A stretch of DNA of 20,000 bases from an uncultured virus (IMG/VR IMGVR_UViG_3300037466_003063) (taxonomy: Duplodnaviria; Heunggongvirae; Uroviricota; Caudoviricetes). The notes below the pieces were generated by a model. The model saw only the letters and a program-made list of their open reading frames with translations. It searched no databases and was not told the DNA's origin. Each line of letters begins with the position of its first letter. Position 1 is the stretch's first letter. This document shows, piece after piece, positions 1,291-17,019 of the stretch. Position numbers and translations under genes: made by a program. Where the stretch lies: the IMG/VR virus record IMGVR_UViG_3300037466_003063. One strand, written 5' to 3'.

Positions 1291-1389
1291 AACGCTTCTT
1301 AACGAAGATTAAGCAGCACGCCAACAGGGCAGAAAATTTGACCTGGATAGCAGTTGAAACTACACTCCAAAGTGGAAAGGAGTGAGATT

Positions 1390-1578
1390 ATGCTGCAGAC
1401 CGTCATCAACGATGTGATCGCCCAGGCTCGCCTGCGGATCGAGACTCGCGTGTCGACTGCCGAAGACGAAATCGTCGCCATCGGCAAGGAGCTTTCGGCG
1501 CGTATCAGGAAGCGTGCTCTGCTTTCCGTCGCCGTCACCGCCGTCATCAGTTTCGCGCTCGGTGCGATTCTGTTTTAA
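1390..1578 (+). CDS. Small protein with C-terminal TM helix (62 aa)
   Basis: RBS AAAGGAG before ATG 1390. Helical N-terminus and C-terminal ALLSVAVTAVISFALGAILF. Confidence 0.7.
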   Translation: MLQTVINDVIAQARLRIETRVSTAEDEIVAIGKELSARIRKRALLSVAVTAVISFALGAILF

Positions 1579-1597
1579 TTGCGGTTTCAATAAACGG

Positions 1598-1626
1598 TTG
1601 ACGTAGTCACGACTCGTCTGTAGTCA
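1598..1626 (+). promoter_or_regulatory. Sigma70-like promoter for the non-coding region
   Basis: TTGACG (1598-1603), 17 nt spacer, TAGTCA (1621-1626). Overlapped by operator-like TCAATAAACGGTTGA (1587-1601). Confidence 0.65.
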
Positions 1627-1632
1627 ACCGAA

Positions 1633-2300
1633 TCAGTCGGTGGCGACGGGAAGCATGGTAAGCCGGAGAGGGGTTGCAAACCCTCAAAGGAGCCGCCCGA
1701 GACCCGCTTGGCCCGAGGTCTGGTTGCGATATATCGGGCAGAGAGAATCATCTTCCGGCGGCGGCCGGAACACCGACAACGAGTTTGGGGACCGGTTACT
1801 TCCGCTCTGCAGAGAGGGAGCGATGGCCCAAATAAGCGAGGCTCTACGGCTCGCAGGACGATGCAGTTCTGCTTGCCGGACATGCGGAGTGGCCGTGCCG
1901 CAGCTTCGACGAAGAACCCCCTCGGCGGGATCCTGCATCGGGTCGGCTGCCGAGGGGAGCGGTGACACCTGCGAGGCGGGGAGTGCTGCTGCTCTGGGAT
2001 GGACGCACGGATCTGCGTTCGCCACACTAAGGAGTCGGCAGGATCCCACTCCCCTTCTCGCAGGTGAGCGCCGGCAGCGGGGTGGAGACTCAGCCTCGCA
2101 AGCGCTTAGGAGCATGACAGCCGGTAAATGCTCCCGCGAGTGGACCGTGAACGAGGGTGCTCCTGGCGTCCGACAGTCCTCATCCAGGTAGGGGAACGGC
2201 GAGTTCGGCCAAGGCGGTCTGTTGCGTCTTAGCCGGTTTCCTCGTCGGCCTCTGCTCGAAGCCCCGCCGGTCAACGCATGACACCGGCGGGGCTTTTCTG
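1633..2300 (+). ncRNA. Candidate large structured non-coding RNA (~650 nt), family unassigned
   Basis: Bounded by a promoter and an intrinsic terminator, with no credible ORF. Many helices: 1636-1642/1771-1777, 1695-1700/1734-1739, 1753-1759/1764-1770, 1784-1789/1827-1832, 1918-1926/1949-1957, 1966-1975/2057-2066, 1978-1985/2047-2054, 2109-2115/2128-2134. Confidence 0.7.
2259..2300 (+). terminator. Intrinsic terminator
   Basis: 13 bp stem AAGCCCCGCCGGT (2259-2271)/ACCGGCGGGGCTT (2283-2295) followed by TTCTGTT. Confidence 0.85.
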
Positions 2301-2370: not shown

Positions 2371-4980
2371 CTATACCCCGAACAGGTCGATCCCCATCTT
2401 GATGCGGTACGCTTCTTCATCACCGCGGTAGTAGAGCCGCTGCTGGCCGTAGGTCTTGTGCCGGTAGCGCTCGCCCCAACAGAACCATCCCGGTACGAGC
2501 CGCATCGCGCGGCCGAGCGTCTGCGCCGCCTGCTGGTTGTACGATTTCGCGTCCGAGCCGAGGCATTCGACCCAGATTTCGACCAGGCAGGTTTCGTCGC
2601 GCGGCTTGGCCGGTCCTTCGTCGTCCATTCCGCCGGTCGACACAGGGCGATCAAGCCATGCAGCGATCCTGCCAGCGAGTGCGTCGTCCGCGGATTCGAC
2701 CCGAGCAGACTCCTGCCGCCGTGCGGCAATCACCTTGGCTTCTTCGTCGTCGAGATAGAGCGGCAGCGTGCCACGTGGCTGCACCGAGCGCATCTGGCGG
2801 TAAATCGCCACCGCCTCGGCCCAAAGCTGGTCGACTTCGCGCTCCAGACGGTCGGTATCGATTTCCTCGACGTGGCAGCTGACCGGCCAGTAGCGGCGAC
2901 CGCCGGTGTCGTCCTTCAGGTAGCGGTCGTCGTTGGTCGAACCGATGAAGATGCACTGCCGGTCGTACTGCTCGGCGCGGCGGTTGTAGGCGAGGCGAAC
3001 CTTGTCGGTGCGGCGGCTGATGAACGCCTTGATGTGGCGAACGTCAGCGCGGGCGAAGCCGGAAAGCTCGGGGATTTCGAGGATCCATGCTCCCTGCATC
3101 AACTCGACCATCTGCTTGGCGTCCTCGAAGTCGCCGTCGAGTTCGGCGAACCAGCTTTTCGCGAGGATCGAGATGAAGGTCGATTTGCGCTTGCCCTGCA
3201 GACCTTCGAGAATCACCGCGAAGTCGAACTTGTGACCTGGCTCGAACACGCGGGTCACGCCGGCGGTGAGCATCAGCCGAGCTACAGACCGGTGGTAGGC
3301 GTCGTCGGGCGCCCCGACATATTCCACGAAAAGGCGCTCGATTCGCTCGGTTCCGTCCCACTGCAGACCGGAGAGATATTCCCGAACGGGGTGAAAGGCG
3401 TTCTTACGACCAGCGATGTTGATCGCTGCACGTAAATCTCGGTCGGGAACCTTGATCCCATAACCGCCCTGAGTTTCCGGAGCTTCGATGAGCGCCCTGA
3501 TCGCATCGTCCTTGTCCTCGGTCCAGAAGTCCCCGTTGATCGTGTCCCGAAGCACCCATGACGGGCCTTCCAACTGCAGCGGCTGCTTCGCCTGGTTCTT
3601 CCGCTTCGGGTTTTTACGACCCGGCTGGCCGCGCTGCACGATTTCCTTGGTGAACTCGTTGTAGGAAGCGACGCCGCGCGTCCAGATGTCGTTCTCGACG
3701 ATCAGCCGGAGGTTGTGCAGCGTCGGCTTGAGACCGCCTTCCTCGTTGAAGTGCAACAGCGACTTCCAGTCGAGCTTGAGCGCTTCGGCGCGCTCCTCGG
3801 GAGACAGGTCTAGCGCGGCGAGGTCGTCATCTTCGATGAGTTCGTCGAAGTCGCTGGATTCCCCCTCAAGCTCGTCGAAATCGCTTGCCTCACTGCTTTT
3901 CTCAGGCGCCCGTGCAAGCTCGTCAAAGTCGCTCGCATCTCCGGCGTCATCCGAATCGAAACTATCATCGGTGGGTGCCTCCTCGAAGTCGTCGAACTGG
4001 TCGCGCAGCGCCGCGGCACGCGCATCCGCGGCCCATTGCCGAACGGTCGCCATTGTCACCGGCTGGCGGCGGTTGCGGCCGAACCCGCGCCACTTCTTGC
4101 GCATCTCACGCAAGCCAGCCTTGGTGTCGTCGAACTTCTCCGAGCGCTTCGACTGCTCGACCCAGAGATCGAAGCCGGCATCGCTCGCACCGAACTGGTG
4201 GTGGAGCGCCTGCCCGAGCGTCACCCAATCGTGATAATCGTCTAAGCGCTCGACCGGCAGCGACTCAAGGTCGCGCTCCATCTGACCCGGCTTGAAGGTC
4301 AGTGGCTCTCGCGTCTCGAATTCATACTCTGCGGTTTCAGCGGCGCCGAGCGATTCGATGACGTTCGCGGGAATGTGATGCACCTCGACGCCGAACAGCA
4401 TCGAATCGAGGTCGAACGGCCGTTCCCAGACGTACGGTTTGCCGGTGTCGGGATGAATCGAGGGCGGCATCGCGACATGCTTGCCCGTACCGAAAAGTTC
4501 GATTTCCCAATCGTACGACCAGACCTCTTTCTTCCGGTCGTGGTCATAGCGCCGGTGCTTGCCCTCGCTGACCGCGAGCTTCTTGCCGAAGAAGGGCTTG
4601 TCGGTCGTGAAATAGAGGTGCCGTGATTCGCCGCCTGACCCTGACTGGACCGAGGGCAGCGCCTTTACATCGACACCGGGCAGCAGCTTGGCGAGCGCTT
4701 CCCGCGCTTCCTCGGCACATTCCGCGATGCGGATGTCCATGTCGATGACAAGCAGATAGTCGCCGTTGACCAGATGCGACGGTTCACCGAGTCGCACGCC
4801 AAGATTGTTGCCGCGCGCGTGCGTCGACCGGAGCGTGTCGAGCGACGCGACGGCGCGTTCCGACCAATCGTTGCCGATCGGCCGCTTGGTGCGCGGATGC
4901 AGCCAATGACAGGCGAAGCCCGCATCGCGCAGCGGCCCGATGGCCGCGAGGACAGAATTATCGTGCGGATCGGTGCTCAT
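2371..4980 (-). CDS. Primase-helicase: N-terminal Prim-Pol domain, PriCT-2, acidic linker, C-terminal VirE/VapE-type P-loop helicase
   Basis: Prim-pol motifs NLGVRLG, VIDMD, SRHLYF, VAMPPSIHPDTG. PriCT-2-like YHDWVTLGQALH. Walker A GLQGKRKST and FIGSTNDDRYLKDDTGGRRYWP. Confidence 0.92.
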   Translation of the reverse strand: MSTDPHDNSVLAAIGPLRDAGFACHWLHPRTKRPIGNDWSERAVASLDTLRSTHARGNNLGVRLGEPSHLVNGDYLLVIDMDIRIAECAEEAREALAKLLPGVDVKALPSVQSGSGGESRHLYFTTDKPFFGKKLAVSEGKHRRYDHDRKKEVWSYDWEIELFGTGKHVAMPPSIHPDTGKPYVWERPFDLDSMLFGVEVHHIPANVIESLGAAETAEYEFETREPLTFKPGQMERDLESLPVERLDDYHDWVTLGQALHHQFGASDAGFDLWVEQSKRSEKFDDTKAGLREMRKKWRGFGRNRRQPVTMATVRQWAADARAAALRDQFDDFEEAPTDDSFDSDDAGDASDFDELARAPEKSSEASDFDELEGESSDFDELIEDDDLAALDLSPEERAEALKLDWKSLLHFNEEGGLKPTLHNLRLIVENDIWTRGVASYNEFTKEIVQRGQPGRKNPKRKNQAKQPLQLEGPSWVLRDTINGDFWTEDKDDAIRALIEAPETQGGYGIKVPDRDLRAAINIAGRKNAFHPVREYLSGLQWDGTERIERLFVEYVGAPDDAYHRSVARLMLTAGVTRVFEPGHKFDFAVILEGLQGKRKSTFISILAKSWFAELDGDFEDAKQMVELMQGAWILEIPELSGFARADVRHIKAFISRRTDKVRLAYNRRAEQYDRQCIFIGSTNDDRYLKDDTGGRRYWPVSCHVEEIDTDRLEREVDQLWAEAVAIYRQMRSVQPRGTLPLYLDDEEAKVIAARRQESARVESADDALAGRIAAWLDRPVSTGGMDDEGPAKPRDETCLVEIWVECLGSDAKSYNQQAAQTLGRAMRLVPGWFCWGERYRHKTYGQQRLYYRGDEEAYRIKMGIDLFGV

Positions 4981-6204: not shown

Positions 6205-6390
6205 ATGATGAACGCAAACCTGCCCAACAGGACCCTCGAAGACATTCTCGACATCGCGTTCGTGATGCGAGGTCTGCCGCGGCACGTTCGCGACATCAGC
6301 ATTCTGGAATCGGAGAATGTCGTCGACTGTCGCGACCTGTTTCTCCGGCGGAGCCGCATGGCTGAATATCTCTGCAGCGACGGCGCATGA
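6205..6390 (+). CDS. Small hypothetical protein
   Basis: Its stop overlaps the ATG of the HNH gene (ATGA). Confidence 0.55.
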   Translation: MMNANLPNRTLEDILDIAFVMRGLPRHVRDISILESENVVDCRDLFLRRSRMAEYLCSDGA

Positions 6391-6923
6391 GCGAAGAGTG
6401 GAGAGATATTAACGGTCACGCAGGCTACCAGGTGAGCAACCTAGGTCGCGTGAGATCACTCGATCGAGTGAAAGTCTGCCGCGGTAGATGGGGGCTGTGC
6501 AAGCGTCGCCTCAAAGGTCGAATGCTAACGACGACGCGATTTCGTAATGGGTATCTCGGTATCGTGCTAGGAAGTGGCTCTAAATCTCATTTGGTACACC
6601 GTCTGGTTGCGCAAGCGTTCATTGCAAACCCGCTCGAACTTCCAGAAGTAAATCATAAAGATGGGATTAGAAGCAACAATGTTGTCGGGAACTTGGAATG
6701 GGTAAGCAGCACCGGCAATAAATTGCATTCCTACCGAGAGTTGGGCCGGAAGCAGCACGAGTGGACAATTCCTGTCGCACTTGTTGGCGGGTCTGAAAGA
6801 TTGGAATTTCCGTCAGAGTTGGCAGCTGCAAAGCATCTCGGCGTGGACGCCGGAAGTATTCGTTCCGCCCTAAAGCGAGATCATTGCTGCAGAGGTTGGC
6901 GCGTTGAAAGGATTGCGGCGTGA
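6387..6923 (+). CDS. NUMOD4-HNH homing endonuclease
   Basis: NUMOD4 EEWRDINGHAGYQVSNLGRVRS; HNH core VHRLVAQAF...VNHKDGIRSNNVVGNLEW; C-terminal HTH-like FPSELAAAKHLGV. Visibly lower GC than neighbours. Confidence 0.92.
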   Translation: MSEEWRDINGHAGYQVSNLGRVRSLDRVKVCRGRWGLCKRRLKGRMLTTTRFRNGYLGIVLGSGSKSHLVHRLVAQAFIANPLELPEVNHKDGIRSNNVVGNLEWVSSTGNKLHSYRELGRKQHEWTIPVALVGGSERLEFPSELAAAKHLGVDAGSIRSALKRDHCCRGWRVERIAA

Positions 6924-16373: not shown

Positions 16374-16507
16374 ATTAGAACAGTTTTTCGGCGTAGGTGG
16401 AGGCCCGAGCCGGAATCACCATTTTGTTGTAAATCAATGGGTTATTTGGCGAACCATCCCAAAACGACCTGTTTCTCCCCTTAGCATCCCTTCGCATTTG
16501 GCGAACC
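16321..16507. repeat. Integrase arm-type repeats and IHF site flanking the att core
   Basis: ATTTGGCGAACC at 16321, 16444 and 16496; inverted GGTTCGCCAAA at 16343-16353. AATCAATGGGTTA (16432-16444) matches the IHF consensus WATCAANNNNTTR. Confidence 0.85.
16398..16417 (-). other. attP core: 3' end of a tRNA, most likely tRNA-Cys
   Basis: The minus strand reads GATTCCGGCTCGGGCCTCCA: partial T-loop, T-stem CCGGC, acceptor strand TCGGGCC, discriminator T and CCA. The rest of the tRNA is absent. Confidence 0.85.
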
Positions 16508-16554
16508 TTTTGGGACATGCCAATGCAACCATACAGTGAGACTGTCCCCAACTT

Positions 16555-16594
16555 TCAATAAACGGTTGAAACTATACACCGACGCGAGTATCCT
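16555..16594 (+). promoter_or_regulatory. Promoter of the packaging operon with overlapping operator
   Basis: TTGAAA (16566-16571), 17 nt spacer, TATCCT (16589-16594). Operator-like TCAATAAACGGTTGA (16555-16569). Confidence 0.65.
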
Positions 16595-16600
16595 CGCGGC

Positions 16601-16906
16601 ATGTCCTTCTGGCTTGCTCTTGCCACTGTTGCGACCGGGTTGCTCATTGGCACGAGTCCGCCTCCTGATCGCTTTCGCGGCAACACGCACGCAACGGTGC
16701 AGTTTGAGACGCCTCGGCACATCAACCAGCTTTGCCGCACCAAAGACACGCCTGCAGGATCTAGGCTGTACGCGTGCATTGCAAGGGACGGACACATCAT
16801 CATGCCCAATCCCTGCGTCTATCCGATGCATCCTGGTTCGTATGACGAACTGCTCTGCCACGAACTCGGCCACATCAATGGTTGGCCTGTGACGCACGGT
16901 CCATGA
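16601..16906 (+). CDS. Small exported protein with HExxH zincin-like motif
   Basis: Signal-like MSFWLALATVATGLLIG, four Cys, and LLCHELGHINGWPVTH. Confidence 0.7.
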   Translation: MSFWLALATVATGLLIGTSPPPDRFRGNTHATVQFETPRHINQLCRTKDTPAGSRLYACIARDGHIIMPNPCVYPMHPGSYDELLCHELGHINGWPVTHGP

Positions 16907-17019
16907 GCGCATTCTACACGATGCTCGCGGAATGCTGCCTCGGTTGGGGCCACCTGTTTCTGCGTCTCAGCGAATGGCTGATCGATCGCGCAATGAGAGC
17001 GGAGATCGGTGACCTGTGA
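16903..17019 (+). CDS. Small hypothetical protein (38 aa, MSAFYTMLAECCLGWGHLFLRLSEWLIDRAMRAEIGDL)
   Basis: Hand-translated. Coupled at both ends: ATGA with the upstream gene and GTGA with the small terminase. Confidence 0.6.
   Translation: MSAFYTMLAECCLGWGHLFLRLSEWLIDRAMRAEIGDL

Follow-up and report, generated by a model that had tools for sequence, protein, structure and literature searches.

Background

The closest described counterparts of the stretch considered here are GOLLD and ROOL, large ornate RNAs of bacteria and phages. ROOL is described as conserving six junctions and three pseudoknots, and both GOLLD and ROOL as often lying near tRNA genes (Weinberg et al. 2017, PMC5737381), a position that is typical and not obligatory; both RNAs are also treated in a cryo-electron microscopy preprint (10.1101/2024.12.08.627333). 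The present analysis concerns a stretch of ~790 nucleotides (nt; positions 1579-2370) without coding signal in the uncultured tailed phage of IMG/VR record IMGVR_UViG_3300037466_003063, located between the stop codon of an open reading frame (ORF) of 62 amino acids (aa) and the stop codon of a convergent primase gene. Positions refer to a window of 20,000 nt, the reverse complement of the first 20 kb of this 45.9-kb virus record (60% G+C, completeness estimate 68%), and negative coordinates lie upstream of its first letter. An earlier note, made from the sequence of the window, had proposed that 1598-2300 encodes a large ornate RNA with its own promoter and terminator, either a divergent relative of GOLLD and ROOL or a new class. 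Here the stretch is tentatively read, at somewhat below an even chance, as the tail of an accessory operon, transcribed but not translated, in which a twin hairpin (1918-2073) and tandem terminators would shield the convergent primase gene.

What the stretch has in common with GOLLD and ROOL is several hundred nt of non-coding DNA in a phage genome and a function that is not known. It differs from them in that many multistem junctions or pseudoknots are unsupported and only hairpins are well defined, in the absence of a family of homologues, and in its host context, the relatives of this phage being Sphingomonas prophages and not phages of rumen or lactic-acid bacteria. Furthermore, no tRNA or tmRNA genes were detected in the 20-kb window with ARAGORN, whereas GOLLD and ROOL are often found beside tRNAs. 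When the window was compared with Rfam 15, no match was obtained at the gathering score. At E<=10, six Rfam matches appeared in 1500-2450, with 14-17 bits against thresholds of 42-168 bits; GOLLD is not among them, and the six are hairpin or terminator look-alikes. Other families of Rfam 15 (group I and II introns, RNase P, tmRNA, 6S, OLE, raiA and HEARO) gave no covariance-model match, and no Rfam match was found in the loci of 14 relatives or in the contig holding the 5.5 kb upstream (L032). GOLLD and ROOL were rejected, with no covariance-model match even at E<=10, and a new class of large RNA cannot be demonstrated because no second member was found anywhere searched. The twin-hairpin element is lineage-specific, strain-variable and outside every described RNA family. 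As things stand, the main value of the analysis is corrective: the stretch is an orphan and no relative of GOLLD or ROOL, and its supposedly ornate fold is mostly unsupported.

A second comparison is offered by sib of phage lambda, an RNase III site downstream of int that works as a 3'-end retroregulator in cis. With sib-type retroregulators and other long structured 3' untranslated regions the stretch shares a stable hairpin in an operon tail, upstream of or merged with the terminator, which would influence in cis how stable the preceding message is. It differs from sib-type elements in being far longer (720 nt) and in showing no sequence relationship to them, and RNase III processing is putative here.

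Terminators, promoters and the preceding ORF

The 3' end of the stretch carries two intrinsic terminators on the plus strand, in each of which a GC-rich hairpin is followed by a U-run on the transcribed strand. The first, T1 (2258-2303), consists of a GC stem of 13-14 base pairs (bp; 2258-2296), an 11-nt loop and the tail UUUUCUGUU, and corresponds to inverted repeat I6 (13 nt at 100%). With -28.3 kcal/mol and a z-score against shuffled sequences (z) of -5.3, it bears out the strong terminator of the earlier note. The second, T2 (2335-2370), had been absent from that note's list; it corresponds to inverted repeat I10, its U6 tail touches the primase stop codon, and it folds with -24.2 kcal/mol on the plus strand (z -4.9) as compared with -15.0 on the minus strand. 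A program terminator scan missed both T1 and T2; its loop limit was 8 nt, below the 11-nt loop of T1. The arrangement resembles tandem intrinsic terminators between convergent genes, with GC hairpins and U tails on the plus strand at a convergent-gene junction, and differs in that T1 and T2 cover only the last ~110 nt of the stretch. Since these terminators bound the stretch downstream on the plus strand, it is very probably transcribed on that strand. T1 and T2 would halt rightward transcription before it enters the primase gene in the antisense direction.

The 62-aa ORF that precedes the stretch (1390-1578, plus strand) is the last gene of a rightward block of orphan genes. It has a strong ribosome-binding site (AAGGAG) 8 nt upstream, a hydrophobic C-terminal segment, a GC content by codon position of 0.60/0.37-0.43/0.65-0.72 and a score of +0.15 in a codon model trained on the long genes of the same phage. 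No Pfam or PHROG family was found for it, and neither this ORF nor the one at 804-1127 has a relative in IMG/VR. A promoter scan of 1200-2800 returned one promoter-like match, TTGACC-17-TACACT (1338-1366, plus strand), a candidate transcript start identified by consensus match only (9/12 positions; 0.2 +/- 0.4 such matches expected in shuffles). Because this better promoter-like site precedes the ORF, the stretch would be at least the ~720-nt 3' tail of that ORF. From the ORF to T1, a single hairpin (1553-1567) carries a U-run, and by our own reading the RNA would end there before the stop codon (1576-1578), so that transcripts of the ORF are expected to run on to T1. In the untranslated-tail reading, these transcripts would meet no convincing terminator before T1 and T2 and would carry ~720 nt of non-coding RNA, and the rightward transcription unit would close a ~4.4-kb block of small orphan genes between the primase gene and an iteron-type origin.

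Ahead of the 62-aa ORF, 262 nt of lower G+C (0.48-0.51; 1128-1389) contain the promoter-like site, and the minus strand holds a 51-aa ORF with a hydrophobic segment (1135-1290).

The earlier note had assigned the RNA a promoter of its own, TTGACG-17-TAGTCA (1598-1603/1621-1626). A stand-alone non-coding RNA of ~650-670 nt, transcribed from a promoter near 1598-1626, with a trans-acting or structural role and founding a new class of large phage RNAs, would be in line with the size of the stretch, its phage context, the terminator at its end and a -35 box with 5/6 consensus positions. However, the -10 box agrees with TATAAT at 2/6 positions by our own count, and the site is not among the matches of the promoter scan. 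On the whole evidence, including the folding, homology and variation data given below, such an RNA appears unlikely. The proposed promoter is enclosed by a plus-strand hairpin (1595-1630) with an 8-bp stem, CGGTTGAC/GTCAACCG (1595-1602/1623-1630), which has a pair probability (P) of 0.97 in a model of the transcript 1373-2300 and folds with -13.9 kcal/mol (z -2.4). In the same model, the 3' end of the ORF is linked to the start of the stretch (1520-1655, plus strand) by a 17-bp helix, 1520-1536 x 1639-1655 (P 0.92). This helix corresponds to inverted repeat I4 (14 nt at 93%), 2.8% of shuffled targets reach a better duplex energy, and 1500-1665 folds with z -4.2. A 9-nt inverted repeat flanking the stretch (1580-1588/2304-2312) was discarded as expected by chance, ~3 such pairs per 1.2 kb being our own estimate.

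Coding potential

That the stretch holds low-quality ORFs only, as had been stated, was confirmed by positional GC content, codon scores, and family and homologue searches. GC content by codon position is flat across 1621-2250 (0.57-0.73); the flanking genes are strongly periodic. All eight ORFs of at least 45 aa overlapping 1590-2310 obtained negative codon scores, from -0.14 to -0.31. The Pfam-supported HNH gene at 6387-6923 is negative as well (-0.157), and for this reason the codon score alone is weak evidence and cannot exclude a foreign gene; hence, the non-coding argument is carried by the flat positional GC and the absent homologues.

For the 13 stop-to-stop frames with 30 aa or more, Pfam returned nothing and PHROG a single, insignificant match (E 0.031). 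Among 5.8 billion proteins, no relative was found for the 214-aa minus frame, and the 194-aa plus frame retrieved only the window's own 178-aa gene call; a translated-pattern scan of IMG/VR with the latter frame gave no matches. A phmmer search of 1.84 billion representatives yielded one match besides the ORF itself, a public protein cluster representative (P0002) of 1079 aa that is made of seven near-identical 126-aa tandem repeats rich in R, S, G and A and agrees over a patch of 29-54 aa with 1898-2038 translated in the plus frame. This protein, which is absent from IMG/VR, was set aside as a homologue; it has the look of tandemly repeated DNA read as protein, and the repeats inflate the score. 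Judged from its sequence, the stretch 1579-2370 is very probably non-coding.

The opposite reading, a protein-coding gene, would take the 178-aa plus-strand ORF starting at ATG 1655, which is called as a protein in a public collection and recorded there from three contigs, as the product. Open frames of 183 aa (1640-2191, plus strand) and 211 aa (minus strand) are present, and a genuine HNH gene likewise has a negative codon score. Against it stand the flat positional GC, the codon score of -0.30, the absence of a Pfam or PHROG family for the 178-aa ORF and the absence of a homologue among the 5.8 billion or 1.84 billion proteins except for the junk tandem-repeat translation. By our own reading, moreover, the changes at 2177-2178 in the minor allele described below alter one amino acid in the 178-aa frame. 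A protein-coding gene is thus very improbable.

Predicted RNA structure

Folding beyond dinucleotide shuffles was found for the whole stretch and for 1918-2073, with a plus-strand bias, but not for 1636-1777 and 2067-2258. Region 1630-2300 gave z -4.5 on the plus strand (20 shuffles) and -2.7 on the minus strand; when T1 was left out (1630-2255), the values were -3.2 and -1.45 (60 shuffles). For 1373-2300, a z of -8.45 with 20 shuffles shrank to -4.86 with 50. The whole-stretch values with and without T1, the plus-strand bias and a G-rich plus strand (GC skew +0.12 to +0.14 over 1601-2000) would speak for the stand-alone RNA; however, the excess stability resides mainly in one twin hairpin and the terminators.

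The hairpin 1918-1957 and the interrupted stem 1966-1985/2047-2066, both listed in the earlier note, were predicted far beyond chance on the plus strand. The former, a GC-rich 16-bp hairpin corresponding to inverted repeat I20 (P 0.90-0.99), is the first half of the twin-hairpin domain. The second half is a long interrupted hairpin of ~40 bp (1960-2073), which corresponds to inverted repeat I1 (20 nt at 90%), has P 0.93-0.99 for its three lower segments and is the best-supported structure of the stretch. With 200 shuffles, z was -6.0 on the plus and -3.9 on the minus strand for 1918-2070, and -6.5 and -4.9, respectively, for 1966-2066. Region 1778-1965 gave -2.8 and +0.4, and the segment 1914-2074 folds with -99.7 kcal/mol (z -6.0). 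As a control, 27 segments of 336 nt, spread over the record, were each folded as plus and as minus strand (mean z -0.59, standard deviation 1.26). The 336 nt of 1775-2110 on the plus strand, with z -5.0, are the extreme of these 54 values, the next being -3.3. The twin hairpin would be either strongly selected or palindromic.

A perfect 10-nt complement, 1927-1936/2038-2047 (GGGATCCTGC/GCAGGATCCC, repeat I14), with a GGATCC palindrome in each copy, could connect the loop of 1918-1957 to the long hairpin on its 3' side, as a possible pseudoknot or alternative pairing.

The multi-branched 5' domain of the earlier note found little support. Its closing helix, GTCGGTG/CACCGAC, is present in the minimum-energy fold, but its pair probability is below 0.6 and falls to 0 once the upstream ORF is included (transcript model 1373-2300), and the domain (1636-1777) folds little or no better than shuffles (z -2.2 on the plus and -1.9 on the minus strand). 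The improbability of this helix argues against the stand-alone RNA. Nor are the hairpins suggested at 1784-1832, 1836-1854 and 2109-2134 well defined, 1847-1878 and 2108-2115/2157-2164 being preferred. The helices that are well defined (P >=0.6) are those at 1668-1685, 1754-1769, 1853-1872, 1918-1957, 1960-2073 and 2187-2256, together with T1. Among them, the interrupted 26-bp hairpin 2187-2256 (plus strand, P 0.96-0.98) stands directly before T1; 2183-2260 folds with -38.0 kcal/mol and z -3.2, and the larger region 2067-2258 gave z -0.2 despite containing this hairpin. The folding models point to a string of hairpins, one of them exceptional, and leave an ornate multi-junction fold mostly unsupported.

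If the stretch is an untranslated operon tail, its plus-strand RNA is predicted to fold into the twin hairpin 1918-2073, the hairpin 2187-2256 and the two tandem terminators. By analogy, the most likely role of the twin hairpin would be one in cis, on the transcript that carries it, and it may serve as a barrier to 3' exonucleases or as a processing site for a double-strand RNase. Between the RNA of the stretch and the rest of the phage no complementarity beyond chance was found (best 14 nt, E 0.095).

Another role for a structured tail would be that of a hok-like type I toxin arrangement, in which it folds back on the ribosome-binding site of a small membrane-protein ORF and blocks translation. 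The 62-aa protein has a hydrophobic C-terminus, and modelling of the transcript 1373-2300 places its 5' end, with AAGGAG, in a helix with 2174-2186 (P ~0.9), a segment of the island 2132-2209 described below. This pairing is no better than chance, since 25% of shuffled targets match it (13.6% for the island alone); its model depends on an assumed 5' end, and by our own reading it is weakened by the minor-allele changes at 2177-2178. In addition, the scan of 1200-2800 gave no minus-strand promoter for an antisense RNA. In typical type I toxins the transmembrane segment is not C-terminal, unlike that of the 62-aa ORF. A hok-like arrangement is hardly credible on this evidence.

Homologue searches

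No match to the stretch was obtained in the phage GenBank collection using blastn in its 'distant' mode, or in the plasmid collection. The blastn, nhmmer and tblastx searches of 18 loci carrying relatives of the primase gene (L002-L021, primase 48-68% identical) gave nothing, and the whole records of five relative phages gave nothing below E 0.09. Two short matches in 401 Alphaproteobacteria genomes were treated as chance level, as were seven in 401 Sphingomonadaceae genomes (25-46 nt, per-genome E >=1.9e-4). The best genome match, 2144-2207 with positions 1501-1567 of L030 (64 nt at 78%, per-genome E 1.4e-5 among 401 genomes), is probably also due to chance; it falls inside an alphaproteobacterial phosphotransferase-like gene, in the catalytic-loop region, and at the protein level the similarity is limited to a 10-aa patch. 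A 31-mer taken from the island 2132-2209 had no exact match in IMG/VR. A covariance model built from the single sequence 1914-2074 found nothing below E 0.26 in the loci of 14 relatives, and no match in 5 relative records or 151 Sphingomonadaceae genomes, these searches having been run without a positive control. The stand-alone RNA is therefore left with neither an Rfam match nor a second member in the collections searched, which argues against it.

Variation between co-occurring strains

At least three alleles of 1607-2452 coexist, with flanks otherwise identical, in 4/4 metagenome runs, and assembly contigs break at 1636 and at 2423-2452. The minor allele (depth 17-26 as compared with ~94-102 for the main one, in 4/4 runs) has the left flank in common up to 1636, shows joints from 1636 to 2132 and from 2209 to 2372, and skips or replaces 1637-2131 and 2210-2371 before it rejoins the primase gene with third-position changes. 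It keeps an island of 78 nt (2132-2209, plus strand), which carries two changes (2177-2178) and is unstructured (z +2.4). Since the minor allele replaces or lacks 1637-2131 and 2210-2371, the twin hairpin and both terminators are exchangeable or dispensable. A third allele, with a depth of ~10 in 4/4 runs, has T1 minus 7 loop bases (2275-2283) and by our own reading still retains at least 10 stem pairs of T1.

A second polymorphic patch is located at 251-382, inside the orphan ORFs 1-417 and 363-788. It is represented by a contig at roughly main depth, with 13 differing letters over 132 nt, and seven listed changes (285-352) occur in 4/4 runs.

For the stand-alone RNA the strain data cut both ways: the minor allele diverges exactly from 1637, just past the proposed start, but a co-occurring strain lacks most of the stretch or carries other sequence in its place. 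The same data bear on the possibility that the stretch is a functionless spacer, namely a recombination leftover from the insertion of a block or a long-decayed foreign gene, in which only the terminators matter and the hairpin is a DNA palindrome. Such a spacer would account for an orphan without relatives that varies between strains with otherwise identical flanks, about half of which is no more structured than shuffles; the twin hairpin folds as DNA too, and in the relative L002 another insert (a candidate HNH endonuclease ORF, see below) occupies this position between primase stop and origin. However, two terminators 720 nt past the last ORF mean that the DNA is very probably transcribed, its G+C of 0.60-0.68 is above the record mean of 0.60, unlike that of typical spacers, a z of -6 with plus-strand G-U pairs is hard to obtain by decay, and no protein remnant was detected in any frame. 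We regard a functionless spacer as rather doubtful, and it and the stand-alone RNA are both live rivals of the untranslated-tail reading.

Several results weigh against the untranslated tail itself, in addition to the weakness of the codon score mentioned above. The twin hairpin is located within 1637-2131, the segment that is replaced or missing in the co-occurring strain, and is dispensable or exchangeable within the phage population. It also folds as single-stranded DNA (z -4.1), and DNA-level processes can generate long inverted repeats. In about half of the stretch (1636-1777 and 2067-2258) the folding stability barely exceeds that of shuffles, if at all, and no helix has covariation support because no homologue was found. 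The cis role of the hairpins is drawn from analogy only. Finally, the 11 soil and rhizosphere DNA sequencing runs in which near-identical sequence was found list no RNA run among them.

The pattern of alleles may also be read as that of a new lineage-specific phage RNA of ~0.7-0.9 kb, with a swappable structured body (1637-2131) and a conserved single-stranded island (2132-2209) before the hairpin and terminator, a decidedly speculative idea to which we give little weight. If it were true, the layout of body and island would be appropriate for an RNA decoy or for a riboregulator working in trans, encoded in a block of accessory genes that possibly serve counter-defence. Should the twin hairpin and the island be functional, they would provide a rare case of a long non-coding RNA from a phage that has Sphingomonas prophages as relatives, within a strain-variable accessory block, with message stability, regulation and host interference as candidate roles.

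The inserted block and the probable replication origin

The convergent gene (2371-4980, minus strand) encodes a Prim-Pol/PriCT_2/VapE-like primase-helicase (Pfam PF09250, 2.8e-16; PF08707, 1.7e-17; PF05272, 4.3e-76). Its relatives, with 48-68% identity, were found in 7 IMG/VR loci, 11 metagenome loci and 2 Sphingomonas genomes. In satellite phage P4, an iteron-type origin with the repeats TGTTCACC lies beside the primase-helicase gene. The relatives of the present phage resemble P4 in carrying inverted arrays of short repeats directly after the primase gene: words of 7-10 nt (TGTTCAC, GTTCCAC, CCTGTCACAC) are located 60-500 nt after the primase stop (L005 6549-6811, L013 6140-6438, L008 6770-7015, L021 6263-6595 and L020 6212-6550). 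On sequence grounds, these arrays are iteron-type origins. The repeat word differs between relatives, TGTTCAC being that of L005 and L013, as would be expected if each primase-helicase recognises its own iterons.

In the phage under study, the flagged stretch has no such repeats, and the arrays are found ~4.5 kb from the primase gene, at about -2750 to -2135 (about 4137-4752 of L032). They comprise the repeat families CCTGTCAC (9-11 copies in both orientations) and ACTTAGGC (8 copies), are 75-81% homologous to the post-primase gaps of L004, L008, L015 and L020, and have the same orientation relative to the primase gene. These arrays are probably the iteron-type replication origin of the phage. 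Promoter-like sites beside them point into the block of small genes.

Since the origin of the relatives lies directly after the primase gene and here ~4.5 kb off, ~4.4 kb have been inserted between primase and origin. The insert contains ~11 small plus-strand ORFs followed by the flagged stretch with T1 and T2; none of the 11 small ORFs scanned has a Pfam or PHROG family. In the relative L002 (6463-7032), an extra segment of ~500 nt, absent from L008, lies between the primase stop and the iterons. It contains a 189-aa ORF, and its reverse-strand reading shows an HNH-endonuclease-like Cys/His motif, which, as judged by eye, makes the ORF a candidate HNH endonuclease. The junction of primase and origin has the appearance of a hot spot for insertions.

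The stretch might itself be the origin of replication, or a site at which the neighbouring primase makes primers, as it adjoins the primase gene, where the relatives hold their iteron origins. This is refuted by the iteron arrays of the phage itself, which are homologous to those origins and lie beyond the ~4.4-kb insert. Moreover, no iterons or tandem repeats were found in 1200-2450, and the stretch, rich in GC, lacks an AT-rich region for unwinding. An origin at this position is exceedingly improbable.

Other features of the record

Besides the primase-helicase, Pfam matches in the window identified further replication genes, encoding an HNH endonuclease, a DUF2800 protein, an Enc34-type ssDNA-binding protein and a helicase. 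Neither a reverse transcriptase nor a tyrosine integrase was found in the 45.9-kb record, which is 68% complete, and readings of the stretch as a retron, a diversity-generating element or an attachment site are accordingly unsupported.

The description of the genome as otherwise densely coding was overstated, as a crude gene caller leaves several further gaps of 500-1900 nt in the record. A region of 1.9 kb without positively scoring ORFs is present at -5214 to -3352, and ~640 nt more without such an ORF occur at 16374-17015, where a promoter-like TTGAAA-17-TATCCT is located at 16566-16594. At -11890 to -11400, the record contains an irregular array of ~7-11 copies of a GC-rich word (AGCGGGTCTC/CCGCTGCC) at a spacing of 19-54 nt.

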